Under the pieces are notes generated by a model. That model ran no database searches. It worked only from the letters and a program-made list of their open reading frames with translations, and was not told the origin of the DNA. 64,000 nucleotides of DNA from Schmidtea polychroa (taxonomy: Eukaryota), in NCBI GenBank assembly GCA_044892525.1, contig CM097885.1, positions 34,412,001 through 34,476,000 on the forward strand. The letters are read 5' to 3'. Each line of letters opens with the position of its first letter. The stretch's first letter is position 1. Below, one piece after another: positions 17,645 to 60,739 of the stretch. The translations under genes were made by a program, and so were the position numbers.

Positions 17645-17663
17645 AAAAATGACAAAAAATCCA

Positions 17664-17746: not shown

Positions 17747-17896
17747 CAACATAAAATAATATTAAAAATTTGAAAATAATATTGAAAATAGTGTGGGTAT
17801 CTTATATTTATAAAGTACTTGTATATTTTATTTTATTTATTTTATTTTATTTTATTTTTTTTATAAATTAAAAATTAAAAAAATGACAAAAATTCA

Positions 17897-23162: not shown

Positions 23163-26100
23163 TCCTACAATGCAAATCTAAATCAGGACACTTTACACAA
23201 ACTGAGATGAGTCTTTAAACACAGGATTTTTATTAACTCCTTCCCCAACCTACTAATTCACTCTGCCATCGTTCAACCCTAAGAACTCTAAAATACCCGC
23301 CGAAAACATAGACGGGCGGACGAAAACAGGGGTGGTACTAAGATATTGCCCGAGTTTTAATTATAACATGAAGTTTATGAAACTTATCGAATAAAATGAT
23401 GATAAAGACGTACGGAGAAAGGGCATCAGCCACGGAGTTCTTCATTACAACTTTGCATTCTAAATTAACTATTTCTTAGGTTTGTAACTTAGTTGACGAA
23501 TTTAATGGAGTAATATAACTAGCGAAATAACTACAACTATAACTTAGAATTCCGAAATTGAATTTTCTTATTTTATCCTTTAAATTAATAAATAAAAAAA
23601 ATTTAATAACCCCAAGTATTAATGTAATAAATCCTACACCTTATCTGATAATATCCTAAAAATTATTGAAAATTCATTTTGTTTAACTTAACTATTTGAG
23701 TTTTCAGAATTTTGTTTACCACTAGATGGTAATTTAAAATTTAATATATGAATTTTTTATGATTTTATGAAATCGGGTAATTTACCACTAAACTCGGGTA
23801 CATCGGGGCGATAAGTATTAGTGGCGAGCTTAGTTTCTCGTTTGCTTACTTCTCCCTCGGTTGTGCTCGTCATGAGTGGTGCAATCTCCTTTTGCTAGTT
23901 TGGAAGTAATTTATTTATTAGCAATAAATTTTCATTTTCAGGTACGTTTGATGGGAATTTTTTTCTCGGACGGAGATGGTTAATTTTAACTTTGAGAGGT
24001 TGTCATACGACTCCTTGCTGGTAATTTCGTTTTATGGTTTATAACGATTTCACACTTGTAATTTGTTAATAATAAAGTTTAGTATTTCCTTGTGACAATG
24101 CTTTTATATTTTATGTAAAGTACAAATTCATAATTTATTAATAATTTATAAAGTTGTCTTTTATATATTTCGGTAATCTGTACTATTTGTCTCCATACTT
24201 TACTGGTAATTCAAATAAACTTAATTAATCATTTCAAGTTATTAAGGCAAGTTTTATCTAGCTCCTAGTTTCAGGGGAGCTAAGTTAGCTAAGATGTTTC
24301 CGTTACTGCTAAGCTTGGGCCAAATCAAATTATTATATAAGTATATTTACTTACATTTACACATATACCTATATGTATACACCCGCCCATATCCTTAATT
24401 AAAATTAATAGCCATAACATTTTCTCCGGGGGGGAGTGTTACTAAAAATAGATTTTAGGAATTGTGACAGTTCTTATTGGAGCAAAGGGTGTCGATTCTA
24501 AATTTAGTTGTGGGGGGAAATCCTAAATCGATAATTCGATCAAATTTTGATTTTTTGGTAGATAATAATATAATAATAGTGTTGGGCTAGAACTGACTTC
24601 TAGACCCAAATTTCTAATTGTGACCGAAATGTGTAGGTACACAGCATGCAAAAAGCAAAAAAGTATAGTTAAATATTAAAACTACACCAAATAACCCATA
24701 GTAATTAAAGGAAAAAACAACAAAAACCTAAAACACAGAAATTAAATAAAATTATACAAAAACAAGAAGTTATGCAAAATCTAACTCAAAAATAGCCAAA
24801 TAAACACAGAGTTACAAAAAAACAAACTCGAATAACTTAAAAGATGGTAAAAATAGCAAAAAATTCCAGGAAAACCCAGAACATTCCATAAAAATGGCGA
24901 TGACCATCATAAAAGCTACCTTAAACAATAAAATTTAGAAAAATAAATAAATTAGTATTAAAAATAAAATTTCTTAAAAAGAAATTCGTAAAATATCAGT
25001 TAAAAATAAAAATTGAATTAAAAGTAATATGGAATGTTCTGGAACCGTTCCAAATCCATCATGGAGGAAAAATTAGCAAAAAATATTTAGGAAATAAAAT
25101 TTTAAAAATAAAAATAAAAATTATGACGCAAAAATCGCCATTAAAAATATCATAATTACAAAATAGAAACGTCTGGAATAAAAAGAATTCGAGTTTGTTT
25201 TAATGCATCAATACATACACGTGTACAAAATAGGTATATATACCGACGCATTTTCGTCACAATTCAGATATTTTTGTATGCCAAAAAATTTTTCTGCCGA
25301 ATTTTCGAACCATATTGAAAGTAAGGATGGTATATTTATTGTATAACTATTATTCATTTTTATGATATATTATAATGATTCTAATTTTTGTCACCTTTTT
25401 ATTATGATCCGATTATTCACAACAAGAGTGACCAGCGTCGTCGTGAGCGGATTACATCCACGACGCTGATCAGCCTTGTTTCCAATAACTACTTCACATG
25501 CACGATACGGGTCTACGACCCCACATGCACTAAATTTCAATTTTTTTACCGGAAGGTCGCCACGAACAAATGGTTTCTAACCAGGAGTAGGGCGGTAAAT
25601 CCATCCAGGTAGTTGGCATAGTCGCAGGGACTATGCGGACGAAATAAAATGCGGGCAAATAATCGCGGGAAACATATTACAATAAGGCCTATCGTACCGT
25701 ATTCAGTTGAATCGGGAAAGTAGGAAAATTTTAATTAATTCGACCTTCCGGTAAACGACACATCTAAAGTACACACTCAAATATTCTATAGGAAATACAT
25801 CATTAGGAACAGCTAAACGGGAAAGATCCCAGACTCAATTTATCACAAAAGTTATCAAGTAGTCGGCTAATTGCACAAACTATCATTCAATATGCTCAAT
25901 ATTAACTATTGTTATTAGATTTTATTGATATTATTCATAATTATGTTCGATTTTAAAGATAATCTAATCACGTTCAATGATATATTAATTACAAGTCTTT
26001 ATCCTTACCTTATGGGTATTGGAATTCTATTTTGCCTTAATAGTAATATCACCCCCAGAATTATTATCATTATCCTCACCACCCTTCTCTCGTTATCTCC

Positions 26101-31630: not shown

Positions 31631-33497
31631 TATTTTGGATTTGGAAATTATAATTTATCATTATCATGAATTTGTAATCTACAGTTTACAGTCAGTATGA
31701 ACTCGCAATTTATACTTCTAGGGAATACAATTTACATTTTCATAACTAATTATAATTTATATTTTTAGGAAATTAGGATTAAAATTTATACTTTATAATT
31801 GTCATAGGGTTACAATTTATAGTTTATCGTTAATATAAATTGGAAATCTTTAATTTCAAGAAATCAAATTTATAATTTATACTTTTATAATTAATCCTAA
31901 TTTCCCTTTAGAAGAAATTAAAACCATAAATATAATCCATAATTCTATTGAGATGATATTTTATACTCTTATGGGTTTATGATTTGTATTTTTATAGTCA
32001 GTTTAAAGTTTATTCAATTTAAAATCTAAATCTGGCCGATACGTATGTCGAACACTCTGATGAATGCCATCACTACTAAATCAATCATTAAAGAAAATCT
32101 TTACTTTACTAGAAAATTTATTTGGGACATTTCCATTCTTAACGTATAGGCAGAGTCGGTTCTGGATGAATTCAACCGTTTATATTAAGTGTGAATTGTA
32201 GAGTTGTGATTAATTTAGGTCTGAGATCTACTCTGTTTATTAACCTTATGTTGTTTGTATTGTAGTGATTTTTAGTGTTGATTTTAATTATGTTATGCAT
32301 TGAAGTCGGGAAGAGTGTTTGCTTTCGCGGCCCCACTGGGACCACTACGACAAAGCTTACTGTTCTGTGGTAAGTCAACCCTTTACGGCTGACCTATAAT
32401 AAATAGGTAGAGTCAGACGGAGGATTTCATCGACTTAACTCCATGACAGGACCATGAGTGGTGCGACCTCCGAATGACCCAAACAATAAAGGAATATAGT
32501 AAAGATAATGCGTGTCTGCATGTTGTTGTGGTAGATTTTATAAATGATTGAATGTAGGACCGAACAGAGACGCAGGTGTATCAATACGCCACTGATCACT
32601 CGTACATCCAAGAAAAAAAAATTTAAAAAGAGTTAGGTTGAGACACAACTAATAATATTAATAAACATGAATAAATAAAATATCAAAGCTTAGGTTGAAA
32701 TACAAATAATAATATCATTAAACATAAATAAAATATCAAAACCTACAATTGAATAAGGTTGCAAGTTTTTTCCAGAAAAAAAATTTGGCATAAAAGAGTG
32801 TTTTTGTGACTAAAATGCGTCGGTATATATACCTATTTTTGTGTGTGCAAGTACACGTGTATGTATTGATGCATTAAAACAAACTCAAATTCTTTTTATT
32901 CTAGAATTTTCTATTTTTTAATTTTGATATTTTTAACGGCAATTTTAGTGCCATAATTTTTGTTTTTATTTTTAAATTTTTATTTTCTAATTATTTCTTG
33001 TTAAATTTACCTCCATGATGGACTTGGAACGGTTCCAGAACATTCCATATTAATTTTAATTTAATTTTTATTTTAATGGTGTTTTTCCTAATTTCTTTAA
33101 GAATTTTTATTTTTATGACTAATTTATTTATTTTTGATAACTTTTATTGTTCCATATGGCTTTTGTGATGGTTATCACCATTTTTATGAAATGTTCGGGG
33201 ATTTTCTAGAATTCTTTACTGTCTTTACTATCTTCTAAGTTATTCGAGTCTGTTTTTCGTAACTCTATGTTTCTTTGCTATTTTTGAGTTAAATTCTTGC
33301 ACAACTTCTTGCATTTGTATTATTTTATTTAATTTCTGGGTTTATATTTTTGTTGTTTTCTCTCTTAATTAATATTGTTTACTTGATGTATTTTTTTTTA
33401 TATTTAACTGTACTTTTTGCTTTTTTGCGTGCTATGTACCTACGCATTCTAGCCACATTTTAGAGTTTTGGGCCTAGAAATCAGTTCTAGCCCAACT

Positions 33498-41158: not shown

Positions 41159-43426
41159 TAGTAATACCTCGTATAACGCTCCCTCTTACAACGCTATTTC
41201 GTTATAACGCTCAAAAAATATTTTTGATATGAAAAAATCACTTAAAAGAATACATATACAATGTGTAGAATTACAACGTAAGAAAAACTGGTCTAATTTA
41301 GACTGTTGCCGATTCGATTGTTTCTCTTTTAAAATTTCAGTGTACGGAGTAAGACTTTTTGAAACACCTCTCTTAATAAAACCAGAATCAGTTAGAACAT
41401 TTAAAGCTTTGGCAATTATTTCTAAATTTTCTTGTAAATCTTTTTTTGTCAATTTCTCTGGCGGCTCTACACTTTCGTGATTTTGGTATAATTCGTCTCC
41501 GATTTCGATTAAATCTTCATTGGAAAGGCTTGCATCATGCAAATTGATTATCTCTTCTACGTCTTCGTTCATTAGATCGTCGAACCCCACATTATGTGCA
41601 ATTTGCACTGTTTCCACGATAATGGAGTGTAAGTTATCGGGCACAGAATTTTCATTTTCTTTAAGAAGAATTTTATTCCAAACACCTCGCATGGAATCAT
41701 TTGTAACTTCATTCCAGGAGTCTCTAATAGTTTCAATCGCCATCATGATATTGAAACTTTTCCAAAATTTCAAAATTGTTTCCTTTTGTACATCAACTGC
41801 ATGTAAAAGTTGCTTGAATGTACGCCGAAGGAAATAGGCTTTAAAATTCGCTATAACTCCCTGGTCCATCAGTTGAATCAAAGAAGTCGTATTCGGAGTT
41901 AAAAAATAACTTCCATAGGTATGGTTTTTGAAAGCGCGGCTATATTTTTTTGAATGCCCAGGTGCATTGTCAATTATAAGAAGAGCTCTGGATTCCAGTT
42001 TCTTACTCTCGCAATACTTTTTTACTGCTAGGTAGAAATATTTCACAAACCATAGGTCAAAAATAGCAGCCGTACGATTGGACATCCAAATGACAGGTGA
42101 ATTATCCTTGAAGTAACCCTTCATTGCCCGAGGATTTTCCGACTGATACAGCAACAACAGTTTCAATTTAAAATCACCTGAAGCGTTCCCACCTAATAAA
42201 AGGGTAAGCCTATCTTTGGCCGCTTTAAATCCAGGTGATCGCTTCTCTTCTTTAGAAATAAATGTTTTGGAAGGCATTCTTTTCCAAAATAACCCTGTCT
42301 CATCTACGTTGAGTATTAATTCGGGTGGATATTTTTTCTCAGCTATCAACGATTTTAAAGATTTAGTAAAATATTTCACGGCACCTACATCGGCGATACC
42401 AGCTTCTCAACAAATTTTTATGTTGTGAATATTAGCACGAACCTTAAATTTCTCGAACCATCATCGGCTTGCTGCAAACGTTTCTACTGATGAGCTAGTA
42501 TATGGTTCGTCAGAGTTTTGTTTCTCTAACTCTTCAAATAAACCTCTTGCTTTCTCCATTATGACTGCTTGACTCAATTGCATATCTCTATTATTTTGGT
42601 CTTCTATCCAGTAGTTCAACAGTTTTTCCATATTTTCAATCATTGTGTTACGCGTTCGAGAGGTTTTTGTAGCTGAAAGTGGTGTTGTTGATTGCACAGA
42701 TCTTTTAATTTTCTCAGCATTTTGCAAAATTGTTCTAACAGTTGATCCGGGTAAATTCAATTCACGGCATACATCTACTTGACGTTCCCCATTTTTTATT
42801 TTTCTGAATTACTTTCAATTTTACATCCATAGTAAAATTTCTTCTCGAATTTTTTGTTAAATCTTTCACTCTTTCTTTCCGTCCCGACATTATTGATAAG
42901 AAATTATTTAGTTATTTACAAAAATAAATAGGAACATTTCAACAAGAAACACTGATTAACTGTTTAATTTTTGTTTCTAAAAAAATTCAAATGATTTATG
43001 TGAATCCCCAAAATATAAACAAAAATGTATGGAAATTTGAAATAAAATACACAGAAATCAATTTTACTATATATGTATAATATACAATATGTAGAATTTA
43101 ATTTAGTTTTTCTATTTTGAATTTCATCATGTTATAATTTTATATGTTTTTGATACATACATATGTATTTAATTTACATAAAGAAAACTTATTTATTGAA
43201 GAAGTATCAAACATTTTTATTTTGAAGTATATATTGAATTGAATTAAATGTATGTACCTTCCATTTATTGATTAAAAATGAATTAAAAATAATAAAAAAT
43301 GGTATTTATTTAACACAGAAGTAACGTAACCCCTAAAGTTTAGTTTTGTTTTGCCTCCTATAGCGCTGTCTTCTATTACGCTCAATTTCCAGGAACGCAT
43401 ATAGAGCGTTGTACGAGGTATTACTG
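41159..43426 (-). mobile_element. Full-length Tigger (TIGD1-like) transposon with a disrupted transposase (42890 to ~41270)
   Basis: TIR (C/T)AGTAATACCTCGTA; TA TSDs; NVDETGLFWKRMP, KDRLTLLLGGNASG, IDNAPGH, QLMDQGVI. Confidence 0.92.
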
Positions 43427-43725: not shown

Positions 43726-45021
43726 TTAATCACTTACATTTTTATTAACTGCGACTTGTGAAGATGAGCTATGTTTGCTGGATATCTTTTTCTTAGGAAC
43801 TCGAAGAAGATCCGCGACCCAATTTTCATACGTTTGATCTTCTACATTACATTTAATTAGTCCGGTTTTTGCTTTGTAAAGGCTACCGTTGTCTTCATAA
43901 CAAAAATTAGACCCCAATTTTATTTCCCATATATTTTTATATTTGTCCTCGACTCGACAACGCTTGTAATCTTGAATTCGTTGAACTCTAGTTTCTTGAA
44001 CCCACCTAGGCTCTAATTTGTTAATTTTCAAATGATAATTTTTTCGCGCTAATTTTTGTGCGTTGTCTACATAGTCATAGGTAGTTTCTGGTAAAGCAAA
44101 ATATGTTACTTTATCTGTTACCGGACTAATTGTGTTTACATAATAATTTCTATCCTCAGCTTGAATTCCTCTTGAAATCATTTCTTTAATTCTAGTAAAG
44201 TTTAAATTTTCAATATCAAAATTAAAAAGCAGAATGTCGTCTTTATGTCTCACAATGAATCTAGCTTTATTTTTCATTTTATCTGTCGCTTCCATTTGAA
44301 GTTCTTCAAGCAATTTTTTTTGATCTTCTGTCTGATCAAGCCTCCTTGTCAGTTTCAGATCTATTATACCAGGATATAATTCGAAATCAACATTTTGATA
44401 TTTAATATATATAACAGATGTTCCAACATTTGTTTCTGGACGACTTATAGCTTGTTTTCGTGAAACTGGACCCGGCTCACGTTCACGGGCTTTCATAAAT
44501 GGCTTTTTGGTTTCCATCATTGACAATCGACTATTTTTTTTGTCTATTGCGTAAAACCTTTTCATTAAATTTAATTTGGTGTTTTTATGATAAAATTTAT
44601 TTGAATAATACATTTTGGATCTTGACTGAACACATTTATCGTTTTCATTTTCTTCAAAAGTCCGATCCTTCAAATAAACGGCTTGTAATCTTACATTGAT
44701 GGGATTAAAAGTCAACAAGTACAACCTCTTATCAAATATATTATTAATATATATTTGACTCAAATTTTCCTCTTGTTTTTTATTCTTTCCCTCTACCTCT
44801 TTTTCATCTTCCTCCTCTTCTATTGCCTCATCAGCTTCGTTACTTACATTTTGATTTATAGTTCCGACATGTTTAATAGAAATATTCGGTAATTTATGAT
44901 TATAATTGGTCCTTTTGTAGTTTGCAAACTGACCTTTTGAAACCTTAATTGAATAGTCTGAATAATCGTAGAAAACATGTGAAGTTACATGAAAATTATA
45001 ATTTTCAATTCTTGGAAACAT
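43726..45021 (-). CDS. Intronless 431-aa hypothetical protein
   Basis: Uninterrupted 1.3-kb ORF in very AT-rich DNA; acidic tract; no motif recognised. Confidence 0.6.
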   Translation of the reverse strand: MFPRIENYNFHVTSHVFYDYSDYSIKVSKGQFANYKRTNYNHKLPNISIKHVGTINQNVSNEADEAIEEEEDEKEVEGKNKKQEENLSQIYINNIFDKRLYLLTFNPINVRLQAVYLKDRTFEENENDKCVQSRSKMYYSNKFYHKNTKLNLMKRFYAIDKKNSRLSMMETKKPFMKAREREPGPVSRKQAISRPETNVGTSVIYIKYQNVDFELYPGIIDLKLTRRLDQTEDQKKLLEELQMEATDKMKNKARFIVRHKDDILLFNFDIENLNFTRIKEMISRGIQAEDRNYYVNTISPVTDKVTYFALPETTYDYVDNAQKLARKNYHLKINKLEPRWVQETRVQRIQDYKRCRVEDKYKNIWEIKLGSNFCYEDNGSLYKAKTGLIKCNVEDQTYENWVADLLRVPKKKISSKHSSSSQVAVNKNVSD

Positions 45022-46499
45022 TTACCATAATAATAAAATTGATTTCGATTATTTCGATTTTCAATATTTTTATTGATTTTTTAAAATTTAACAAAATGAC
45101 GAATTTGCAGTTTTCATAAATGTTGAAAAATTACGATTGAAAATAAATAAAAATTTCAACAGCAATTATATGACACCATTTCCATATCGTACGACTTAAT
45201 CAGATAAAGAACTCCTCCATAAAGATTTCTATGACACTATATCAGAGGTTTTGAAACTTTTTGCATAGCAACACATTAAAAATGGTTGACACTAAAGTTT
45301 TCTTAAAATAATTAAATATGTCAAAAAATATAAATACGAGATAATAAAAAGTAGATGGATTGACCACTACTGAATAGGGTCACCTTTGGATCAGGTAACC
45401 ACCCCCCCCCTTCTGATGAGGATTTTATTAATATGATCATCATGCCAGGCGCTTTCTAATTTATCTGGATTGCGTTGGTCAATGGTATTTGGATAGTAAT
45501 ATCCACACATTTTGATTTGTTGCTCTGTTTCATCGTCATTCCAGTTCAGTGGTGGCCAACCCAAATCAATCGAAGGGCCAAATTTTCGGAAAAATACTAT
45601 CACGGGCCACAATAAATTCATTTAAATAAATATAACTCGTTTTTACGATTCAAGTAAACTTAGAATCAATTTTTAAATTAAAAACATGCTTAATTCGAAT
45701 ATGAATTCTAAAAAAGACAATTATTGATTTGATGTTTAAAATTGTGTCCGGGCCACCGGTTGGCCATGACTGTTCCAGTTATTCCAGTTACCATCAGCTA
45801 TCAGCATTTTCCAGCCTATTTCTCAGCAACATTAAACTGAAATTATTTATATTCTCTGTGGAATTGCTGAAAAAATCTGTAACACGTAATCTGTAATACT
45901 CATCATTTGAGATTGTCTCTTTTATTGTATAATTTATGAATTTATTCATTGCGTTTGCCTTTTGTTGAAGATTTTCATTGGGAATTCTTGTATTTAATGA
46001 AATTATTAATTTATTAAGTCTATCCTCACAGTGGAAACTGGTTTCATATTTAATCTTGAACTTACTATTGTATAAATACATCACTGATAAGAGGGCCCCG
46101 AAGGAATTCGTGATATAATCATATTTGGCTTTAAAAAAGCTTTTTATATATTTAAATAATTTTAAAAATCTAAGTTTGTGATAATTTAATTTTATATGTA
46201 TCATGGAATTTCATAAGTAATAAATAGGATAACTAAAACAAATTTTTTTAAAAAATTATATATCAGTTTGTAATTGCAAAAGGAGCCCGTACTGACGATT
46301 TGCATCGGGGCCCGACTTGACTCTCGACGGCCCTGTATAAGTATATGAAGTTTGCTAGTTTATTGAAAATTTGGTTGATATCAGTAGGTAGTTAGGAGCC
46401 CGCTGCAACAATTACCCCCCCGGGGGGGTTGTTGCAACTTTTTTTTTGTTGCAACTTTTGATTATGCAATTGTTGCAGTGGGCTCACCATATTTTTTTT

Positions 46500-47680
46500 C
46501 AATACAAAAATCCGACTACCACTAAAAAAGCCAAGGATTTTTCAGACTATAGTAAGGTTAGTCTCCTTGGTCCTGAGAAATAGGTGGTCTACACTAAAAA
46601 ACGTGGTAATTTAAGGTCTCAGGATATTTTCAATACAAAAAGCTGGTCTACACTAAAAAAGCATGGAAATTTCACACTATAGTGAGGTGGGTCTCCTTGG
46701 TCCTGAGAAAAAGGCGGTCTTCAATAAAAAAGCATGGTAATTTAAGGTCTCAGGATATTTTCAATACAAAAATCCGACTATCAATGAAAAAGCATGGTAA
46801 TTTAAGGTCTCAGGATATTTTCAATACAAAAAGCTGGTCTACACTAAAAAAGCATGGAAATTTCACACTATAGTGAGGTGGGTCTCCTTGGTCCTGAGAA
46901 AAAGGCGGTCTTCAATAAAAAAGCATGGTAATTTAAGGTCTCAGGATATTTTCAATACAAAAATCCGACTATCAATGAAAAAGCATGGTAATTTAAGGTC
47001 TCAGGATATTTTCAATACAAAAATCCGACTATCAATGAAAAAGCATGGTAATTTAAGGTCTCAGGATATTTTCAATACAAAAGCTGGTCTTCAATAAAAA
47101 AGCATGGTAATTTAAGGTCTCAGGATATTTTCAATACAAAAAGGTGGTCTACACTAAAAAAGCATGGATTTTTCACACTATAGTGAGGGGGTCTCGATGG
47201 TCCTGGGATTTTCAATACAAAAAAATTTTTTCAATACAAAAATCCGACTACCACTAAAAAGCATGGAATTTTCACACTATAGTGAGGGGGTCTCGATGGT
47301 CCTGGGATTTTCAATACAAAAAAAAATTTTTCATTACAAAAAGGCAGTCTCAATAAAAAAGCATGGATTATTCACACTATAGTGAGGGGGTCTCGATGGT
47401 CCTGGGATTTTCAATACAAAAAAAATTTTTTCAATAGAAAAAGGTGGTCTACACTAAAAAAAGCCAAGGATTTTTCAGACTATAGTGAGGTCAGTCACCT
47501 TGGTCCTGAGAAATGGGTGGTCTACACTAAAAAAACGTGGTAATTTAAGGTCTCAGGATATTTTCAATACAAAAAGCTGGTCTACACTAAAAAAGCCAAG
47601 GATTTTTCAGACTATAGTGAGGTGAGTCTCCTTGGTCCTGAGAAATAGGTGGTCTACACTAAAAAAACGGGGTAAATTTT
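46500..47680. repeat. ~60-bp satellite (mirrored at 59470-60260 with a different copy number)
   Basis: AAAGCATGGTAATTTAAGGTCTCAGGATATTTTCAATACAAAA.. units. Confidence 0.9.
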
Positions 47681-48350
47681 TTCAATTAAAGTAAATAATG
47701 GTCCTAAAAATTAAATTACAGTAAATTATGGTCCAAATTTTTCAATTAAAGTTAATTAATGTCCAAATTTTTCAATTACAGTAAATTATGGTCAAAAATT
47801 TAGAATTACAGTAAATTATGGTCCAAATTTTTCAAATACAGTAAATTATGGGTCTAAAAATTAAATTACAGTAAATTATGGTTCAAATTTTTCAATTACA
47901 ATAAATTATGGTTCTAAAAAATTAAATTACAGTAAATTATGGCTCAAATTTTTGAATTACAGTAAGTAATGGGTCTAAAAATTAAATTACAGTAAATAAT
48001 GGTCCTAAAAAATTAAATTACAGTAAATTATGGTCCAAATTTTTCAATTACAGTAAATTATGGTTCTAAAAAATTAAATTACAGTAAATTATGGTCCAAA
48101 TTTTTCAAATGCAGTAAATTATGGTTCTAAAAATTAAATTATAGTAAATAATGGTTCTTAAAAATTAAATTACAGTAAATAATGGTCCAAATTTTTAAAT
48201 TAAAGTAAATTTAGGTTCTAAAAAATTAAATTAAACTAAATTATGGTTCTAAAAATTGAATTACAGTAAATTATGGCTCAAATTTTTCAATTACAGTAAA
48301 TTAAGGTTCTAAAAAATTAAATTAAAGTTAATTAAGGTCCAAATTTTAAA
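47680..48350. repeat. 30-31-bp satellite (mirrored at 59030-59460)
   Basis: GTCCAAATTTTTCAATTACAGTAAATTATG units. Confidence 0.9.
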
Positions 48351-48499
48351 ATTAAGTAATCAATGGTAAAAAATTTTAAATAAGTAAATCAAAGTAATAA
48401 TTTTTAAATAAGTAATGTAATAAGTAAATTAAAGTAAGATTTTTAAATTTATTAACAAAAAGTTGAAATAATAGAAGGTGTTTGAGAATTGAAATTTTT

Positions 48500-48720
48500 T
48501 AATGAAAATTTTTATGAAATAATTTTCAATGGTAATTTTTTATGGAAATTTTTATGAAATATTTTTCAATGGTAATTTTTTATGGAAATTTTTATGAAAT
48601 ATTTTTCAATGGTAATTTTTAATGAAAATTTTTATGAAATATTTTTCAATGATAATTTTAGATGGAAATTTTTAAGATAACTTTTAATGAAAATTTTTAT
48701 GAAATATTTTTCAAAGACAA
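48500..48720. repeat. 40-bp satellite (mirrored at 58655-58870)
   Basis: TTTATGAAATATTTTTCAATGGTAATTTTTTATGGAAATT units. Confidence 0.85.
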
Positions 48721-48734
48721 ATTTTAATAATAAT

Positions 48735-49760
48735 TCAACAACAAACCAACAACTTAGGACCAACAACCAGTAATTTACGAACATGTAGTTACAACCAGAT
48801 ACCTACAACTAGTTACTAACAACTAGTTACCTGCTACCAAGTACTTACAACTAGATACCACGTACTAACTAACTCTCAAACAACCAGATACTTACAACCA
48901 ATTACCACCTACCCATTAACTAGCTACAACTAGATACCAAGTACCAACAACCAGTTACCAACTACTAAGCACCTACAACCACCTACAAAGTACATATAAC
49001 CAACATCAACCAGGTACTAAGCATTAATTACCAATTACTAAGTACCTACAACCACCTACCCATTAACTAGCTACAACCAGTTAACAACTAGCTACCACCT
49101 ACCAATTAACTAGCTACAACCAGCTAACTAGGTACTAGATACCAAGTACTAACAACCAGTTACCAACTACTAAGCACCTACAACCACCTACCAAGTACTA
49201 ACAACCGACAACAACCAGCTAACAACTAACTACCACCTACCAAGTACTAACAATCAAAAGCAACAACTAGATGCTAACAACCAAAAACATGCAACCAACT
49301 AGCTACCAAGTACTAACAACCAACATCAACCAGGTACTAAGCATCATCAACCAACTACTAAGTACCTACAACCAACTAGCTACCACCTACCAAGTACTAA
49401 CAACCAGTTACCTGATACCAAGTACTAACAACCCACAACAATTAGCTAACAACTAACTACCACCTACCAAGTACCTACAACTAGATACTAACAACCAGTT
49501 ACCCATTAACTAGCTACAACCAGCACTCAACTAGCTACCAACTACCAAGTACTAACAACCAACTAGCTACCACCTACCAAGTACTAACAACCAGTTACCA
49601 ACTACTAAGCATTAATTACCTACAACTAGTTACTAACAACTAGATACCAAGTACATACAACCAACAACTAAGCATTATCAACCAAGTACTAACAACCAAG
49701 TAACTTACCTAGTAATAAGCACTGTCAACTAGATACCAAACACTTACAACCAGATGACCA
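48735..49760. repeat. Strand-skewed A/C-rich complex repeat (mirrored at 57610-58630)
   Basis: ACCAAGTACTAACAACCAG / CTACCACCTAC variants. Confidence 0.9.
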
Positions 49761-50050
49761 CATGAAATTATTGGTTAAATATGAAAATAAGGATTATATT
49801 TAGTTGTTAAGTAAATTATGGTGTAAAATTAAGAAATAAAGAATAATTAGGTAAATTAAAGTTAAAAATTTTAAATAAGTAAATTAAGGTTCAAAATTTA
49901 AAATTAAGTATCCAATGGTTCAAATTTTAAATTAAAGCTAAATAAGTAAATTAAAGTAAGATTTTTAAATTTATTATCAAAAGATTGAATAACCACCAAC
50001 TTTTTTGAGAAATGTAATTTATAATGAAAATTTAAATGGAAATTTTAATG

Positions 50051-50092
<42 letters not shown>

Positions 50093-53000
50093 TAATAATA
50101 ATAATAATATTAATAATAAAAATAATAATTCAACAATCAGATTCCAACAACGATCATGTATTTTTAACTAGGTGCTAACAAATACTTTCAACATGATACC
50201 ACATACTAACTAAATCTCAATCAACCAAGTAAAAACAACCAAGTACTAACAACCAACTAAATCTTCTTCATTGTATCTTATGAAATGCTTTTTAAATTAA
50301 TTTTTTATCTGTCTTCAAAAATATGTTTAATTACAATCAATAGAAAAACCTTTTCATGATGTCTAAATTTAACAAAAATGTTGATTTTCATCAAAAAAAT
50401 GAATAATTGTCAACTCTAACACCACGTGGAATTGAAAAAAAATTACAATGAAAGACTAATGAATTCTAATTTACAAAACATTCTTCTTTTAATTGATAAC
50501 TTATTATTGCAATGTAAAAATCGCATTCAATAAATACTTATTGTTGATCAGTTTTATTATATATACTCTGAGTTTATCCGACAGGATGTTTTGACCCCCT
50601 AAGGATACAGGTCATAAGGCTACTGGTCGTAAGGGTATTAGTCGTAAGAGTAATGGTTGTAAGGATATTGCTAACACTCAACCCCCACCTACCCATTAAG
50701 TAGTTACTAAGTACTATCAACCAACTACTTACAACCAACAACTATGTACTAACAAATTGATCTTTAAAAGTAAATACTCATCACTTGAAAAATTAGATGG
50801 AAAATTAATTGAACTCAAGGCATCAATAACTAGGTAAAAATTGAATAAATATTTTGTAAAAATTTAAATTATTCAAAATAAATATCATAAAAATTTAATT
50901 AATAGACAAGACAGAATTCTAATCATTAATCATCCAGTAAATAAAAAAAATACTGATCATTCAAGTTGAATCAACTAAGTTAATAAATTAATAAGAATTT
51001 TTAAATAAGATCTAATAAATAACTGATTTAGATTGAATAAATTAATTTAAATAAAATTAATTTTAATTATTTTTTTTTAAAAGTAATACATGTACTCAAA
51101 TTGATTGACTGATTGCTCAAAATATTCAAAAATCAGTATAAATTCATTAAAATTATCAATGTCATCAATCTACAATAAAAATAATTATCATTAAATTCCA
51201 ATAGACTAGAAAACTAACAAACCAGTAAATTCATTCAAATGACAATAATTGGTATATCCGAGTGAATTCTCCAAGGAAATCATCTAAAAAGAATCATTTT
51301 CCCCTAAATATATCAATATTTAAAGATTGGTATTTTAATGATAAATACTTGTTTAAGATCATATATTCACCTCAAACTAATAAGATTCCTTAAAATCCCT
51401 TAAATGACTATATTTCAACCCTTAATTCATATTATTACAAATATCATCTAAAAAGCATCAAATTTCCCTGAAATATCTCTGTCTTTTAAGATTAGTATTT
51501 TATCGATAAGTATTTGTTAAAGATCATGTATTCCCCTCAGATTAATAAGATTCCTTAAAATCCCCTTTAAATGACTATAATTCTAACTTTAATTCATATT
51601 ATTCCCGAATATTTCCCTATAAAACATGTAAAATCATTAACCCTAAATAATTTATAAAATCTAATGATAAAAGTGGTTATAATAAAATTTTTGTTAATCA
51701 TTGTACTCGAAATTTAAAATAAATATAACTGACTAGGTCCCATTGAAAGATTAAATTTATCCATTCAATAAAATATATTTCTTCAAATGATCATTTTACC
51801 GATATTCAACCGATTTAATTACTAATTAAAATCAAGATTTCTTCCAATAAAGATCAATGTTTTAAGTCCACATTTCTCGACTTTTGTCATTCTCCGCTTA
51901 AATAAAGATAAAAATAAATTAAAGTTGATATCAATCCCAATTATCTGTAAAGATTTCATTATCAAAACCAAGTAAATCGATCATTATCCCTACTTAATAA
52001 AACATTGTTCTAAATTAATTTACTGTGCATTAATCACAACCTAATAAAACGATATAATTATTATTGATTCATAACTGAATAATTGCAATTTCCCTTAAAA
52101 CATTGATATTTTACCAACATCATCCTTAAAAAATCATATATTCCCATCTTAACCCATCCCTCATTAAATTTAATCGACTAAATCTCCCTTAAAAGATCAT
52201 ATTTTCCATCTTAACCGATCTCTCATTAAATCTAACCGACAATATCCCATCTTAACCGATCTCTCACCAAATATTTCTACCTCTTTAAACATCTAACCAA
52301 TTATATTCTACCCACTTGAATCCTCCTTTAATTCAGTTCAGTCTTAAAATCTTTAAAGAACTTCAAAAAATATGAATTTTCATAAACACCAGGCATTCTT
52401 CCATTGAAATAATTTAGAAGCTAAATCGATCATTATCCCTACTTAATAGAACATTGTTCTAAATTAATTTACTGTGCATTATTCACAATCTAATAAAACG
52501 ATATAATTATTATTGATACATAACTGACTAATGTATTGACATTTCCCTTAAAACATTGATATTTTACCAACAGCATACTTAAAAAATCATATATTCCCAT
52601 CTTAACCCATCTCTCATTAAAATCAATCGACTATATCCCCCTTACAATGATATATTTCCATCTTAACCCATCCCTCAATAAATTTAGCCGACTATATCCA
52701 CTCAAAAGATCATATTCTCTCATTAAAGTCAATCGACTATATCTCCCTTACAATGATCAATTTCCATCTTAACCCATCCTTCATTAAATTTAACCGACTA
52801 TATCCCCAATAAAAACATATATTCCCATCTTAACCGATCTCTCAGTAAATATTTCTACCACTTTAAACTTCAATATCTAACCAACTATATCCCTTGAGGT
52901 TATATCCCCTTTAATTCAGTCAATCGTCTTAAAATCCTTAGAGAACTTCAAAAATATGACTTTTAATTAATTGTTATAGAACCAGACATTTTTCCATTGA

Positions 53001-53659
53001 AATAATTTAGAAGCTAAATAATAAGAGCCCACTAAAAATCAAAATTCACTAAAGTTTTCTACAAATATTTACCATCAAATACCTAACTGGAGATGATATA
53101 TATATATATATATTGATTGATCGTAATTCTTCAGCTATTCAACCAATCATTTTCAAGCACTATCAGCAAACTAAATTTCAGTATCCTACAATAATTATCA
53201 AGTAAATTTAAAGTTAACTAGTTTCTTAGCTTATGTTTTTTAAAGTTCATCAATGAGTAAATATTCTTAGAAAATTATTGAAAAATTATTTAGTCAAATA
53301 TATTACAATGTTATCATCAAAAATTTATTCTATCACTTAATTATTAACCTAATTGTCAATGAAATTAGTTTTTATTTAAAAACTATTCAATAAAATACAA
53401 CTAATTATCAAGAAATTTTTTAAATTTATCAATTAAATTTATCACCATTAAAACTTTTAATCAGTCAACATGAAATTCTTAGAAAAATATTCAATATCCT
53501 CATCAAAATTTATCCTATCACAAACTTTAATTATTAATTTCATTAAAAATAAATTTTTATTTAAAATTAAAAAACCAATCAATAAAAATACATCCAATTA
53601 TCAAGAAATTAATTAAATTTATCTTAGAACTAACTTTGAATTATTAAATATTCATTCAA

Positions 53660-53990
53660 TAATCATGAAATCCACAAAAATAATAGAAATTTACAAAAAT
53701 CAAAGAAATTCACAAAAATGATAAAAATTCATGAAAATGATAGATATCCACAAAAATTACTGATATTCACAAAAAATTATGGAAATTCATGAAAATGATG
53801 GAAATCTACAAAAAACGATAAAAATTCATAAAAATTATAGCAATTCGCAAAAATAATAGGAAATTCACAAAAATGATAGATATCCACAAAAATTATAGAT
53901 AATCACAAAAATTACGGAAAATAATAGAAATCCGCAAAAATAATAGAAATTCACAAAAAACGATAAAAATTCACAAAAAAGATAGAAATT
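53660..53990. repeat. ~20-bp satellite in the palindrome spacer
   Basis: GAAATTCACAAAAATGATAG variants. Confidence 0.8.
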
Positions 53991-56900
53991 TACTTGAATA
54001 TTTACTAAAACTATCAACTCTAAAAATTATCAATGCCTTAAACAACAAATTTGCCTAAATAATCATTCAAATAAAAGCATTAAATGATAAGTACCCTTAC
54101 GACATGTTGAATGTGAGTAGTACCCTTGTGAGCAATTCCCATAGGGGGACAGAATATTTTGTCGGATAAACTCAGAGTATATATAATAAAACGAATTAAC
54201 TCATTCAAATTTTTCATTGAATTAGTCAAATTATCATAATTTCGATAAAAAATCTTATTCTAAAGTGGTAAGCAACTGTAGGATAAAAAGACAATTATTC
54301 TTTAAACTATGATAAAATTAACAATGAAGGTGGTAAGAATCTTCATTAAAGCGAGGAAATTATTCATTACTCGATGATAAATTCAAATGGGTGAAAATAA
54401 TTGGTAGAATAATCCATTAATGGATCATGAGAGGTAAATACTGAGAAGTGGCATGGATAACATGAAGGTTGATAAGAATGGAAGTATATTAATTGAATTT
54501 ATTTAAAATTATTTCATAAAATTCATAAATTTAATAAAAAAAAACAAATATTTGTGGGGATGTTTTAAGTGAATAATTAATAAAAATCGGCGGAATATAA
54601 GTAGAAAATCGGGGTGGGGGTTATAGGCGAATAATTAATGGAAATTCGAGGGATATTAGTGATTAATTAATGGAAAATCGGGGGGATATTAGTGATAATA
54701 ATTAGTGGAAAATAGAGAATCGAGGGAATATAGTCGATTGATTTTAATGAGAGATGGGTTAAGATGGGAATATATGATTTTTTAAGTATGCTGTTGGTAA
54801 AATATCAATGTTTTAAGGGAAATGTCAATACATTAGTCAGTTATGTATCAATAATAATTATATCGTTTTATTAGATTGTGAATAATGCACAGTAAATTAA
54901 TTTAGAACAATGTTCTATTAAGTAGGGATAATGATCGATTTAGCTTCTAAATTATTTCAATGGAAGAATGCCTGGTGTTTATGAAAATTCATATTTTTTG
55001 AAGTTCTTTAAAGATTTTAAGACTGAACTGAATTAAAGGAGGATTCAAGTGGGTAGAATATAATTGGTTAGATGTTTAAAGAGGTAGAAATATTTGGTGA
55101 GAGATCGGTTAAGATGGGATATTGTCGGTTAGATTTAATGAGAGATCGGTTAAGATGGAAAATATGATCTTTTAAGGGAGATATAGTCGATTAAATTTAA
55201 TGAGGGATGGGTTAAGATGGGAATATATGATTTTTTAAGGATGATTTTGGTAAAATATCAATGTTTTAAGGGAAATTGCAATTAGTCAGTTATGAATCAA
55301 TAATAATTATATCGTTTTATTAGGTTGTGATTAATGCACAGTAAATTAATTTAGAACAATGTTTTATTAAGTAGGGATAATGATCGATTTACTTGGTTTT
55401 GATAATGAAATCTTTACAGATAATTGGGATTGATATCAACTTTAATTTATTTTTATCTTTATTTAAGCGGAGAATGACAAAAGTTGAGAAATATGGACTT
55501 AAACCATTGATCTTTATTGGAAGAAATCTTGATTTTAATTAGTAATTAAATCGGTTGAATATCGGTAAAATGATCATTTGAAGAAATATATTTTATTGAA
55601 TGGATAAATTTAATCTTTCAATGGGACCTAGTCAGTTATATTTATTTTAAATTTCGAGTACAATGATTAACAAAAATTTTATTATAACCACTTTTATCAT
55701 TAGATTTTATAAATTATTTAGGGTTAATGATTTTACATGTTTTATAGGGAAATATTCGGGAATAATATGAATTAAAGTTAGAATTATAGTCATTTAAAGG
55801 GGATTTTAAGGAATCTTATTAATCTGAGGGGAATACATGATCTTTAACAAATACTTATCGATAAAATACTAATCTTAAAAGACAGAGATATTTCAGGGAA
55901 ATTTGATGCTTTTTAGATGATATTTGTAATAATATGAATTAAGGGTTGAAATATAGTCATTTAAGGGATTTTAAGGAATCTTATTAGTTTGAGGTGAATA
56001 TATGATCTTAAACAAGTATTTATCATTAAAATACCAATCTTTAAATATTGATATATTTAGGGGAAAATGATTCTTTTTAGATGATTTCCTTGGAGAATTC
56101 ACTCGGATATACCAATTATTGTCATTTGAATGAATTTACTGGTTTGTTAGTTTTCTAGTCTATTGGAATTTAATGATAATTATTTTTATTGTAGATTGAT
56201 GACATTGATAATTTTAATGAATTTATACTGATTTTTGAATATTTTGAGCAATCAGTCAATCAATTTGAGTACATGTATTACTTTTAAAAAAAAATAATTA
56301 AAATTAATTTTATTTAAATTAATTTATTCAATCTAAATCAGTTATTTATTAGATCTTATTTAAAAATTCTTATTAATTTATTAACTTAGTTGATTCAACT
56401 TGAATGATCAGTATTTTTTTTATTTACTGGATGATTAATGATTAGAATTCTGTCTTGTCTATTAATTAAATTTTTATGATATTTATTTTGAATAATTTAA
56501 ATTTTTACAAAATATTTATTCAATTTTTACCTAGTTATTGATGCCTTGAGTTCAATTAATTTTCCATCTAATTTTTCAAGTGATGAGTATTTACTTTTAA
56601 AGATCAATTTGTTAGTACATAGTTGTTGGTTGTAAGTAGTTGGTTGATAGTACTTAGTAACTACTTAATGGGTAGGTGGGGGTTGAGTGTTAGCAATATC
56701 CTTACAACCAGTACCCTTACGACTAATACCCTTACGACCAGTAGCCTTATGACCTGTATCCTTAGGGGGTCAAAACATCCTGTCGGATAAACTCAGAGTA
56801 TATATAATAAAACTGATCAACAATAAGTATTTATTGAATGCGATTTTTACATTGCAATAATAAGTTATCAATTAAAAGAAGAATGTTTTGTAAATTAGAA

Positions 56901-57271
56901 TTCATTAGTCTTTCATTGTAATTTTTTTTCAATTCCACGTGGTGTTAGAGTTGACAATTATTCATTTTTTTGATGAAAATCAACATTTTTGTTAAATTTA
57001 GACATCATGAAAAGGTTTTTCTATTGATTGTAATTAAACATATTTTTGAAGACAGATAAAAAATTAATTTAAAAAGCATTTCATAAGATACAATGAAGAA
57101 GATTTAGTTGGTTGTTAGTACTTGGTTGTTTTTACTTGGTTGATTGAGATTTAGTTAGTATGTGGTATCATGTTGAAAGTATTTGTTAGCACCTAGTTAA
57201 AAATACATGATCGTTGTTGGAATCTGATTGTTGAATTATTATTTTTATTATTAATATTATTATTATTATTA

Positions 57272-57316
<45 letters not shown>

Positions 57317-60300
57317 CATTAAAATTTCCATTTAAATTTTCATTATAAATTACATTTCTCAAAAAAGTTGGTGGTTATTCAATCTTTTGATAATAAATTT
57401 AAAAATCTTACTTTAATTTACTTATTTAGTTTTAATTTAAAATTTGAACCATTGGATACTTAATTTTAAATTTTGAACCTTAATTTACTTATTTAAAATT
57501 TTTAACTTTAATTTACCTAATTATTCTTTATTTCTTAATTTTACACCATAATTTACTTAACAACTAAATATAATCCTTATTTTCATATTTAACCAATAAT
57601 TTCATGTGGTCATCTGGTTGTAAGTGTTTGGTAGCTAGTTGACAGTGCTTAGTACTAGGTAAGTTACTTGGTTGTTAGTACTTGGTTGATAATGCTTAGT
57701 TGTTGGTTGTATGTACTTGGTATCTAGTTGTTAGTAACTAGTTGTAGGTAATTAATGCTTAGTAGTTGGTAACTGGTTGTTAGTACTTGGTAGGTGGTAG
57801 CTAGTTGGTTGTTAGTACTTGGTAGTTGGTAACTAGTTGAGTGCTGGTTGTAGCTAGTTAATGGGTAACTGGTTGTTAGTATCTAGTTGTAGGTACTTGG
57901 TAGGTGGTAGTTAGTTGTTAGCTAATTGTTGTGGGTTGTTAGTACTTGGTATCAGGTAACTGGTTGTTAGTACTTGGTAGGTGGTAGCTAGTTGGTTGTA
58001 GGTACTTAGTAGTTGGTTGATGATGCTTAGTACCTGGTTGATGTTGGTTGTTAGTACTTGGTAGCTAGTTGGTTGCATGTTTTTGGTTGTTAGCATCTAG
58101 TTGTTGCTTTTGATTGTTAGTACTTGGTAGGTGGTAGTTAGTTGTTAGCTGGTTGTTGTCGGTTGTTAGTACTTGGTAGGTGGTTGTAGGTGCTTAGTAG
58201 TTGGTAACTGGTTGTTAGTACTTGGTATCTAGTACCTAGTTAGCTGGTTGTAGCTAGTTAATTGGTAGGTGGTAGCTAGTTGTTAACTGGTTGTAGCTAG
58301 TTAATGGGTAGGTGGTTGTAGGTACTTAGTAGTTGGTAATTAATGCTTAGTACCTGGTTGATGTTGGTTATATGTACTTTGTAGGTGGTTGTAGGTGCTT
58401 AGTAGTTGGTAACTGGTTGTTGGTACTTGGTATCTAGTTGTAGCTAGTTAATGGGTAGGTGGTAATTGGTTGTAAGTATCTGGTTGTTTGAGAGTTAGTT
58501 AGTACGTGGTATCTAGTTGTAAGTACTTGGTAGCAGGTAACTAGTTGTTAGTAACTAGTTGTAGGTATCTGGTTGTAACTACATGTTCGTAAGTTACTGG
58601 TTGTTGGTCCTAAGTTGTTGGTTTGTTGTTGAATTATTATTAAAATTTGTCTTTGAAAAATATTTCATAAAAATTTTCATTAAAAGTTATCTTAAAAATT
58701 TCCATCTAAAATTATCATTGAAAAATTTTTTTCATAAAAATTTTCATTAAAAATTACCATTGAAAAATATTTCATAAAAATTTCCATAAAAAATTACCAT
58801 TGAAAAATATTTCATAAAAATTTCCATTAAAAATTAACTTAAAAAATTGTTTCATAAAAATTTTCATTAAAAAATTTCAATTCTCAAACACCTTCTATTA
58901 TTTCAACTTTTTGTTAATAAATTTAAAAATCTTACTTTAATTTACTTATTACATTACTTATTTAAAAATTATTACTTTAATTTACTTATTTAACTTTAAT
59001 TTTAATTTTTTACTTTGATTACTTAATTTTAAAATTTGGACCATTATTTACTTTAATTTAATTTTTTAGGACCATAATTAACTATAATAGAAAAATTTGG
59101 ACCATAATTTACTGTAATTTAATTTTTTAGGACCATAATTTACTTTAATTTAAAAATTTGGACCTTAATTTACTTTAATTTAATTTTTAGGACCATTATT
59201 TACTGTAATTTAAAATATTTGGACCATTATTTACTTTAATTTAATTTTTTAGAACCATAATTAACTGTAATTGAAATATTTGGACCATTATTTACTGTAA
59301 TTCAAAATTTTTGACCATTATTTACTGTAATTTAATTTTTAGAACCATTATTTACTTTAATTTAATTTTTTAGAACCATAATTAACTGTAATTTTATTTT
59401 TTAGGACCATAATTACTTTATTTGAAAAATTTGAACCATAATTTACTTTAATTGACAAATTTACCACGTTTTTTACTGTAGACCGCCTTTTTCTCAGGAC
59501 CAAGAAGCCCCACCTGAATTGACCTAGAAAAATCCATGCTTTTTTAGATATAATCGGATTTTTGTATTGAAAATAACCCGAGACCTTAAATTACCACTGT
59601 TTTTTTGTGATAATCGGATTTTTGTATTGAAAATATCCTGAGACCTTAAATTGCCACTCTTTTTTAGTGTAGACCACCTTTTTGTATTGAAAATATCCTG
59701 AGACCTTAAATTACCATGCTTTTTTAGTGGTAGTCGGATTTTTGTATTGAAAATATCTTGAGACCTTAAATTACCATGCTTTTTTAGTGTAGACCACCTT
59801 TTTGTATTGAAATTCTCAGGACCAAGGAGACCCACCTGAATTGACCTAGAAAAATCCATGCTTTTTTATTGAAGACCACCTTTTTGTATTGAAAATATCC
59901 TGAGACCTTAAATTACCATGCTTTTTTATTGAAGACCCGCTTTTGTATTGAAAATATCCTGAGACCTTAAATTGCCACTGTTTTTTAGTGTAGACCATAT
60001 TTTTGTATTGAAAATATCCTGAGACCTTAAATTGCCACTGTTTTTTTTTAGTGTAGACCACCTTTTTGTATTGAAGTTCTCAGGACCATCGAGACCCCCT
60101 CACTATAGTCTGAAAATTCCATGCTTTTTTATTGAAGACCGCCTTTTTGTATTGAAAAAAATGTTTTGTATTGAAAATCCCAGGACCATCGAAACCCCCT
60201 CACTATAGTCTGAAAATTCCATGCTTTTTTAGTGATAGTCGGATTTTTGTATTGAAAAAAAATATGATGAGCCCACTGCAACAATTGCATAATCAAAAGT

Positions 60301-60739
60301 TGCAACAAAAAAAAAGTTGCAACAACCCCCCCCCCCCCCCCCCCGGGGGTAATTGTTGCAGCGGGCTCCTAACTACCTACTGATATCTGGTTAATCGGTA
60401 TTGGGTAGATTAGCTATTCAGAGATTGTGTGTTTTGAACTTGACCTCATCCAAAAAATAAAGATCAATAATCCATAATCGATAATCAATAACAGTAGTTG
60501 ATATACACACCCGCCACTAGACCAACCTACTCGAGAATCAAAAAATTAATTTAGAAAAATTAAATAATTTAATAATTTTAAATTTTAGATATGAAATATA
60601 GAGAACCCAAAAGTCAACCACCCGAACCCGACCATCAATAATCAATAATCAATAGTCGATAATCAATAACTAATAACTTACTATCGTCAAGAATATCCGA
60701 CCTTCAACTAAAAGTAAAGTAGTTATTTGGTTAGTTTTT

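Follow-up and report, generated by a model that had tools for sequence, protein, structure and literature searches.

A gene-less, palindromic variant of non-autonomous Maverick in Schmidtea polychroa and the coding Maverick that shares its ends

The element at positions 46383 to 60381 of the window (the 64,000-nucleotide stretch of Schmidtea polychroa contig CM097885.1, positions 34,412,001 to 34,476,000, that was analysed) is a non-autonomous Maverick-type element. We consider it highly probable that it is a gene-less Maverick/Polinton derivative that depends on a specific coding Maverick family (the helper). Gene-less copies carry the tips and terminal inverted repeat (TIR) satellites of the helper family and occupy many insertion sites with target-site duplications (TSDs) of 6 bp; the two arms are near-identical within a copy and differ by several percent between copies.

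The 13,999-bp element and its parts

The element is 13,999 bp long, with AGTAG...CTACT ends whose first 35 nt are identical, and the 6-bp TSD GATATC is present at either side. Its arms (46383-52636, 6,254 bp, and 54727-60381, 5,655 bp) account for 85% of the length and are separated by 2,090 bp. Between the inner arms there are 15 substitutions over 3,922 aligned bases, and the outer arrays of the two arms contain unequal numbers of satellite units. No gene was found, the longest stop-to-stop frame (113 aa) being satellite-derived. In its ends, TSD, arms and lack of genes, and in its snap-back architecture (the same end at both sides, self-complementary), the element is as the initial annotation had described it. 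Its parts are as follows.

46377..46382, no strand: left target-site duplication GATATC
46383..46412, + strand: terminal tip, 31/31 nt the same as the tip of the coding Maverick at G000:C2:153887422
46396..46488, + strand: sub-terminal branched hairpin with a long stem, a C-run/G-run arm and a second arm (DNA fold z = -8.1)
46496..47675, + strand: satellite block A, 60/100/131-bp units, belonging to the helper's TIR
47678..48728, + strand: satellite blocks B (30-bp unit) and C (13/40-bp unit), common to the helper's TIR (83-87%)
48790..49760, + strand: C/A-rich minisatellite block D, unmatched in the single helper copy examined in full
49844..50129, + strand: second B/C-like block and (AAT)26; helper-like sequence ends inward here
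50130..52636, + strand: non-coding unique arm ("stuffer"), unmatched in the helper interior or the examined rDNA spacer
50540..50670, - strand: outer degenerate twin of the 93-bp module, 15-bp repeats leading to a TATA-like run, pointing outward
52637..54726, + strand: apparent spacer, formed by the innermost 2.1 kb of the left arm; its mirror is missing here and present in full-length copies
54090..54185, + strand: 93-bp module, pointing to the centre
54720..54735, no strand: deletion junction, where the arm (54727) meets the mirror of 52636 via short G-rich microhomology
54727..60381, - strand: right arm, which mirrors 46383-52636 with a smaller number of satellite units and has the same tip at its end
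60382..60387, no strand: right target-site duplication GATATC

A shorter version of the sub-terminal hairpin is carried by helper ends. A 35-mer from the stuffer has 2,118 exact matches in the genome and a 40-mer of the 93-bp module has 1,658. The module is 94% alike to a stretch at G000:C1:134.9 kb, which elsewhere does not match the gene-less family. The module and its twin fold no better than shuffled sequences (z -0.6 to +0.9), and a miRNA search of seven family loci gave one match, at chance level. An rDNA spacer was considered as the source of the module and stuffer and rejected, no match having been obtained with the single 8.3-kb sequence taken upstream of an 18S gene. An SRP-RNA head was observed at G000:C1:134.5 kb (E 7e-5); it was not found in the 13,999-bp element or in two full-length copies.

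The element had no blastn match in the rest of the window and no Rfam match at E<=1. When the ORFs of the helper and of the window's own Maverick were used as tblastn queries, no pPolB, rve integrase, capsid, ATPase or protease was detected in the interior; hidden coding remnants were rejected, as the matches comprised TIR-derived frames and one nested LTR integrase. Contigs from two public runs of one study run across both ends (left, 46220-46406; right, 60358-60946/60960) at about flank depth. These bridges span the two outer ends, the inner junction at 54727 being absent from the bridging contig pieces listed; no empty site was present among the contig joints listed.

The gene-less family, its helper and its snap-back relatives

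The 30-nt tip matched the genome 188 times at no more than one mismatch and its reversed control not once, so its recurrence is not due to chance. The genome has 3,477 tips in total, and we estimate 1,000-1,500 gene-less copies; a rough calculation (~1,100 copies of ~14 kb) places the family at ~15 Mb or 2% of the genome. A TSD was present in 32 of 35 end pairs, the other three failing a strict test. By class, 6-bp TSDs were found in 24/26 gene-less or unclassified, 5/5 helper, 1/1 structural-arm and 2/3 polymerase-arm end pairs, which upholds the earlier suggestion of Maverick-type insertion as a unit.

The full-length gene-less form is one fixed palindrome of two 7.5-8 kb arms and a 1-kb loop, copied as a unit. 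A 32-mer from the loop boundary, absent from the 13,999-bp copy, gave at least 34 facing pairs among the 100 matches listed, 28 of them 1.0-1.25 kb apart. Centre samples of eight tip pairs spaced 15.7-17.9 kb contained the family loop in seven cases and a helper in one. Eight different inner breakpoints had suggested that the palindrome is re-formed in every copy; since the loop boundary is common to the copies, this idea was rejected, and the differing breakpoints mark deletions. The family's long palindromes tend to suffer such loss at the centre. In the window's copy, a central deletion has removed ~3 kb, namely the loop and ~2 kb of the right arm. Thus, its "spacer" is unpaired arm, and 13,999 bp is not the family's length. 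Inverted repeats of the gene-less family measure 4.4-8 kb. In segment 50270-50600 the arms differ by 0-0.6% in six of eight copies, compared with 1.8-10.9% between copies; the other two have arms 2.4% and 5.2% apart. The tips of one copy differ at 3/30 positions, its TSD still matching.

The coding copy at G000:C2:153887422-153903440 has the same tip (31/31 nt) and TIR satellites as the gene-less element, with ~1.3 kb of TIR in common, and encodes pPolB, rve integrase, A32 ATPase and adenoviral protease. At least three tip variants occur, in exact form, on both coding and gene-less copies. The initial annotation had compared the element with the Maverick at 3690-18853 of the window (15,164 bp), allowing that the helper might belong to another family. 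This caveat was well placed: the window's Maverick was rejected as the helper, as it shares no DNA with the element by blastn, and where its proteins match those of the true helper, identity is 27-38%.

A capsid 30-mer of the helper family has 225 matches in the genome, and the 108 capsid ORFs scored are 99-100% identical and without stops; the evidence for a young helper consists of these capsid data, one helper copy having been read whole, and in that copy the polymerase is stop-interrupted. One of three sampled helper copies lacked a left tip within the sequence retrieved and was left out of the count. The capsid ORF had no Pfam or PDB match by sequence and was assigned by Atlas (0.97) and by fold. 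A database protein 99% identical to it is a predicted double jelly roll (pLDDT 90) with fold matches to iridovirus, PBCV-1 and mavirus capsids (E 1e-13 to 1e-15). Gene-less copies outnumber the helper several-fold. The helper interior has no match to the stuffer at word size 7, and the gene-less interior is therefore not helper-derived; the origin of the stuffer was searched for and not found.

Snap-back genomes recur in the family, since the same ends bound hundreds of polymerase-only palindromes and one verified palindrome of structural genes. Facing pPolB pairs numbered at least 41 among the 100 matches listed, none within 12 kb of a capsid match. Among the 100 capsid matches listed there were four candidate structural-arm palindromes, of which one was verified; the structural-gene arm mirror spans 17,433 bp and has a TSD, and the tips of one other candidate are 22,598 bp apart. 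A helper-derived interior is seen in the polymerase-arm and structural-arm classes, not in the gene-less class.

Proposed mechanism, copy lengths and competing readings

We propose that the family descends from a single copy-back event at an end of the helper, in which genes would have been replaced by non-coding DNA. Protein-primed PolB acting in trans would start at the tips, and the displaced strand could fold back on its arms; such folding would rebuild the duplex origin and keep the arms alike. The helper's rve integrase would insert the element, and molecules may recombine in a shared extrachromosomal pool, so that tip variants would move between helper and satellite. The least certain step, to which we give somewhat less than an even chance, is that length would be capped by the helper's capsid.

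Alternatively, once the element sits in the chromosome, gene conversion between its arms could maintain their likeness. Conversion is a known behaviour of long palindromes, and the inner arms are more alike than the outer parts. The outer parts are, however, slippage-prone satellite arrays, the intact tips and TSDs point to young insertions, and copies with mixed tips or divergent arms and good TSDs are more readily explained by recombination before insertion; we therefore regard conversion as unlikely. Fold-back misassembly could also produce palindromes. The read support is from contigs, and one structural-arm candidate, whose ends were not found, has a loop-less, perfect central palindrome of 1,081 bp. 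Against this stand dozens of loci with distinct flanks and matching TSDs, the contigs of two runs that bridge both ends, a non-palindromic loop common to copies and arms unequal in satellite number, which make an artefact very improbable for the family; for the inner junction of the 13,999-bp copy it is improbable to a lesser degree. Foldback cut-and-paste transposons (FB/Galileo/MuDR) typically have long, modular, satellite-rich arms, a cognate transposase and TSDs of 7-11 bp. That the element is one of these, Maverick-like at its ends by resemblance only, has next to no likelihood given the 6-bp TSD, the exact tip and ~1.3 kb of TIR that it has in common with a coding Maverick and the lack of such a transposase among the ORFs scanned.

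As to length, 26 of 59 marked gene-less copies fall at 15.5-17.7 kb, 2 at 18.5-19.3 kb, 21 below 15.5 kb and 10 at 20 kb or more, and 19 of 24 helpers measure 16.1-18.1 kb. Beyond C1:37 Mb this census used the loop marker alone, which favours full-length copies; in the less biased first 16.7 Mb, 8 of 17 copies were 16.0-17.7 kb long. Foreign nested DNA was checked in three oversize copies by sparse samples (8/20 samples were family) and in one 18.5-kb copy. Copies of 1.9-7.5 kb also have TSDs, so an inserted copy need not match the helper in size. The size match proposed initially thus holds for the family's cluster and not for the 13,999 bp of a deletion variant; the genome-wide tip search found TSD-bearing copies elsewhere and also a tail of shorter ones.

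The length mode near that of the helper fits a packaging limit, without proving it. An account with no particle stage competes with the capsid cap alone: the mode would be the length of a founder, shortened in some copies by deletions and lengthened in others by nested insertions, or be set by a limit on replication or integration in the cell. In any young family the commonest length is that of the founder, and short copies have TSDs (a 2.35-2.5 kb class was met five times). Polymerase-only palindromes also cluster lower, at an estimated 13-15 kb, so one capsid-set size does not fit every class. On the other hand, satellite arrays vary freely (2.9-4.8 kb from tip to marker) and copies differ by 2-9%, yet 2 of 59 alone lie at 17.7-20 kb, and a founder within about 10% of the helper's length would be a coincidence. 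Copies with longer outer parts tend to have shorter inner ones (r = -0.73, n = 8, p = 0.04), a weak result, as the size window was chosen by the analyst and two points are one-sided estimates. We rate this account a serious contender, just short of evens.

If the capsid acts as the filter, one would expect the satellite DNA to be shielded from nuclease and not to exceed the helper in length. According to Barreat and Katzourakis (2021, PMC8097293), particles of animal Mavericks have not been observed; a gene-less family whose filler drifts and whose length stays that of the helper is a direct handle on a putative particle stage. Tentatively, then, one endogenous animal virus may have split into a community of heritable genomes that draw on a common pool of ends (~225 complete helpers, polymerase-only snap-back palindromes in their hundreds, rare palindromes of structural genes and >1,000 gene-less ones with filler held at capsid length), and perhaps the gene-less class is a true packaged satellite whose length edge is the footprint of a Maverick particle.

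Comparison with known systems

A literature search found no description of such a gene-less palindromic Maverick family, which Repbase or paper supplements may already list; ORF-based Maverick surveys cannot see it. Non-autonomous Polintons reportedly described by Kapitonov and Jurka in 2006 and held in Repbase are said to be shorter, internal-deletion derivatives. Compared by description, they are likewise gene-less and helper-dependent with Polinton ends, whereas the present element is helper-sized and almost wholly palindromic, with filler not in the helper. Drosophila FB and Galileo resemble it in their long modular inverted arms, internal tandem repeats and variable centre, and differ in ends, TSD length and mobilising enzyme. 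Helper-dependent adenovirus vectors consist of ends and stuffer, are replicated by a protein-primed polymerase in trans and are kept near helper length; these likenesses (replication in trans being proposed here) go with the difference that the vectors are engineered, do not integrate and are demonstrably packaged, whereas our element is natural and its packaging is inferred.

Within the Maverick/Polinton elements themselves, as described by Barreat and Katzourakis (PMC8097293) and by Arkhipova and Yushenova (2019, PMC6431247), the likeness extends to AG/AGT-type ends, TIRs, 6-bp TSDs, the 12.7-24.6 kb size class and a cognate helper that encodes pPolB, integrase, ATPase, protease and a double jelly-roll capsid; the inverted repeats of intact vertebrate elements are 46-1,447 bp, in contrast to those of the gene-less family. 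The snapback defective-interfering genomes of AAV (PMC8235507) are self-complementary with one end duplicated and form left-end and right-end classes, which the polymerase-arm and structural-arm palindromes parallel. The AAV forms are transient, were sequenced from virions and consist of viral sequence, whereas those described here are germline-integrated and heritable, and the main family has no coding DNA. In the polymerase-only palindromes, the dynamics of defective genomes, as in cultured viruses, are fixed in a germline.

Structure and copies of the gene-less palindrome

The gene-less palindrome at positions 46383-60381 of the window (13,999 bp, 27% GC) lies in an AT-rich host genome of 781 Mb with four chromosome-scale contigs. 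Its neighbours and internal features are:

3690-18853, coding Maverick of 15,164 bp with the target-site duplication (TSD) CGGCAA
20448-21677, LTR-type RNase H/integrase ORF
41186-42277, DDE_1 transposase ORF
43726-45021, ORF of 431 aa close to the palindrome, with no match in Pfam
46396-46488, sub-terminal hairpin of the palindrome
54090-54185, 93-bp module of the palindrome

In addition, 224-bp inverted repeats (90% complementary, 25003-25226 and 32851-33074, 7.6 kb apart) are possibly another element with terminal inverted repeats (TIRs).

The architecture described in the initial annotation was confirmed: matching AGTAG...CTACT ends with the 6-bp TSD GATATC, arms of 6,254 and 5,655 bp separated by a 2,090-bp spacer, near-identical inner arms (15 substitutions in 3,922 bases), outer satellite arrays whose copy number is unequal between arms, and no credible ORF. 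An Rfam scan of the element gave no match, and each of its ends is spanned by contigs of two public sequencing runs, both belonging to a single study.

The 30-nt tip had 188 genome matches with at most one mismatch and a degenerate tip had 3,477 exact matches; reversed controls had none. A 35-mer of the unique non-coding arm (stuffer) matched exactly 2,118 times, with 30 facing pairs among the first 100 listed. We estimate ca. 1,000-1,500 gene-less loci, fragments included. The expectation that other copies were also inserted with 6-bp TSDs held: all 12 copies fetched whole (11 gene-less, a Gypsy element nested in one of them aside, and one coding) have such a TSD, and 32 of 35 end pairs from all classes examined, part of them scored by eye, passed a strict test. 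The three failures were a single mismatch, three extra bases at the tip followed by a matching hexamer, and flanks that are reverse complements of each other, as in a segmental inversion. The Gypsy LTR element sits at the inner module of its host copy (L037:6446-9327 and L038:1-2170). Another copy, spanning fetched stretches L041 and L042, has arms 5-9% apart although its tips are identical and its TSD matches; it is possibly a recombinant.

The first 118 nt of the element form a branched hairpin (fold z -8.1). Across 53 different termini, a downstream complement to the terminus's own 7-mer (positions 22-28) was found in 42 of 44 with the common tip variant and in 2/2 for each of three other variants, which are the two ends of one element each and thus count as three events, not six; the complement was not found in three singleton termini. 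The sub-terminal hairpin stem changes along with the tip variants, and its C-run and G-run are swapped in order in some copies. Each arm contains the 93-bp module two times, once in either direction. The module is 94% identical to a stretch (L077:967-1059) near an SRP-RNA-like head at C1:134.5-134.9 kb; the two are 400 bp apart, in DNA that otherwise does not resemble the family. The module has no RNA fold and is absent from the helper copy and the rDNA spacer examined; we infer that it looks like a promoter.

Master form and central deletions

Two full copies (16.0 and 17.1 kb) have 7.5-8 kb arms and a loop of ca. 1 kb. A loop-boundary 32-mer, not present in the window copy, formed 34 pairs among 100 matches listed, 28 of them 1.0-1.25 kb apart, and a 40-mer from the window copy's spacer formed 30 facing pairs among 100 matches listed (median separation 2.2 kb). 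Centre samples of eight tip pairs picked by length (15.7-17.9 kb) contained the same loop (15-20% GC) in seven cases. That loop and boundary are common to the copies argues for a single ancestral fold-back, with the palindrome copied and propagated as a whole unit. A short microhomology marks the junction at which, in the window copy, 54727 meets the mirror position of 52636; ca. 3 kb of the master form is missing. Breakpoints of other shortened copies are all different, as expected for independent central deletions, either before or after insertion.

Within copies, the two arms diverged in one segment by 0-0.6% in six of eight cases, the remaining copies showing 2.4% and 5.2%; between copies, the same segment diverged by 1.8-10.9%. 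The arms of a copy are probably kept alike by arm-to-arm copying during strand-displacement replication, the model of the Polinton and adenovirus literature.

Helper Maverick and snap-back siblings

The initial annotation took the window Maverick for size comparison and allowed for a helper from another family. The latter proved right, since a coding Maverick with the same tip exists elsewhere; the former did not stand, as the element has no match to the window Maverick. The window Maverick encodes pPolB, ATPase and a double jelly-roll capsid; its integrase ORF also bears a phospholipase A2-like domain (PF08398). Helper proteins are 27-38% identical to its proteins where alignable.

The helper reference copy (G000:C2:153887422-153903440, 16,019 bp) shares with the gene-less element the tip and ca. 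1.3 kb of TIR satellites; the stuffer does not match the helper interior. Pfam detected pPolB, rve integrase, A32 ATPase, adenoviral protease, mu-like core protein and TBP; the TBP-like protein (PF00352, E 5e-16; L048:5956-6468) is head to head with the ATPase. One ORF without sequence match in Pfam or PDB is the presumed capsid: the predicted fold (pLDDT 90) of a database protein 99% identical to it matches double jelly-roll capsids. The helper family is young: 108 scored ORFs reach 99-100% identity, and the genome holds 225 matches to a capsid 30-mer. At least three exact tip variants are common to helper and gene-less copies. The tips of one gene-less copy differ at 3/30 positions with a matching TSD, which may be read as recombination preceding insertion.

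A polymerase 30-mer had 864 genome matches, against 225 for the capsid; its 41 facing pairs among the first 100 listed are mostly 7-11 kb apart, and none is within 12 kb of a capsid match. Such polymerase-only palindromes have two outward-facing pPolB arms, no capsid match and a 6-bp TSD; we estimate 350-500 loci of ca. 13-15 kb. In G000:C1:9092710-9106037 (13,328 bp, TSD present), the arm examined carries a 1,020-aa stop-free pPolB frame, its DNA 95% identical to the helper's, and the centre is non-coding and unrelated to the stuffer. A second example is G000:C1:2663675-2677166. Conversely, by six spot samples, both arms of G000:C1:216068162-216085594 (17,433 bp, TSD present) consist of the helper side that encodes TBP, integrase and capsid, its length leaving the polymerase no room; three further loci are candidates of similar kind. 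Copy-back products of both helper ends thus exist and were integrated.

Length, possible packaging and known systems

The proposal that stuffer DNA holds the element at packageable size may apply at the level of the family, the 13,999-bp copy itself being a deletion variant. Pooling 455 listed tips on contig C1 gave 59 pairs with the stuffer marker and 24 with a capsid match. Because marker listings extend unequal distances along C1, the tally is biased toward full-length copies: 21 gene-less pairs are below 15.5 kb, 26 at 15.5-17.7, two at 18.5-19.3 and ten at 20 kb or more. The main class is near that of helper pairs (19/24 at 16.1-18.1 kb, median 17.5 kb). In the first 16.7 Mb of C1, where all listings overlap, 8 of 17 copies are 16.0-17.7 kb and none is between 17.7 and 25.9 kb. 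Three oversize copies matched the family in only 8 of 20 spot samples; among the other samples were a frame of an LTR-type integrase and the ATPase of a related Maverick. Outer and inner lengths are negatively correlated in eight copies (r -0.73), a weak result. Shorter copies that are flanked by TSDs (1.9, 2.35 and 6.5-7.5 kb) speak against a strict size rule. A 2.35-2.5 kb class, seen as five tip pairs, is nearly all TIR satellites (e.g., G000:C1:131903952-131906305, L084). It is quite possible, if slightly short of probable, that gene-less copies are packaged in capsids with length capped and shorter forms tolerated; a founder effect with deletion bias fits the same length data.

Intact vertebrate Mavericks are described as 12.7-24.6 kb long with 46-1,447 bp TIRs and 6-bp TSDs (PMC8097293), and planarian Polintons as being under piRNA control (PMC8532177). 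The available part of a Dugesia preprint reports Maverick expansion without giving structure (10.64898/2025.12.11.693146). Giant palindromic derivatives do not appear in the accessible portions of PMC6431247, PMC3014272, PMC5499653 (whose one mention of a 'non-autonomous Polinton' lies outside these portions), 10.1101/2024.01.15.575659 and 10.1101/2022.07.12.499685, and a literature search, with Repbase, subscription papers and supplements outside its scope, returned no description of such a family. AAV snapback genomes of both ends are described in PMC8235507. By its sequence, the element qualifies as a non-autonomous Maverick. Its filler does not come from the helper, so the element is not a strict defective-interfering genome; by analogy, it would work like a snap-back satellite.
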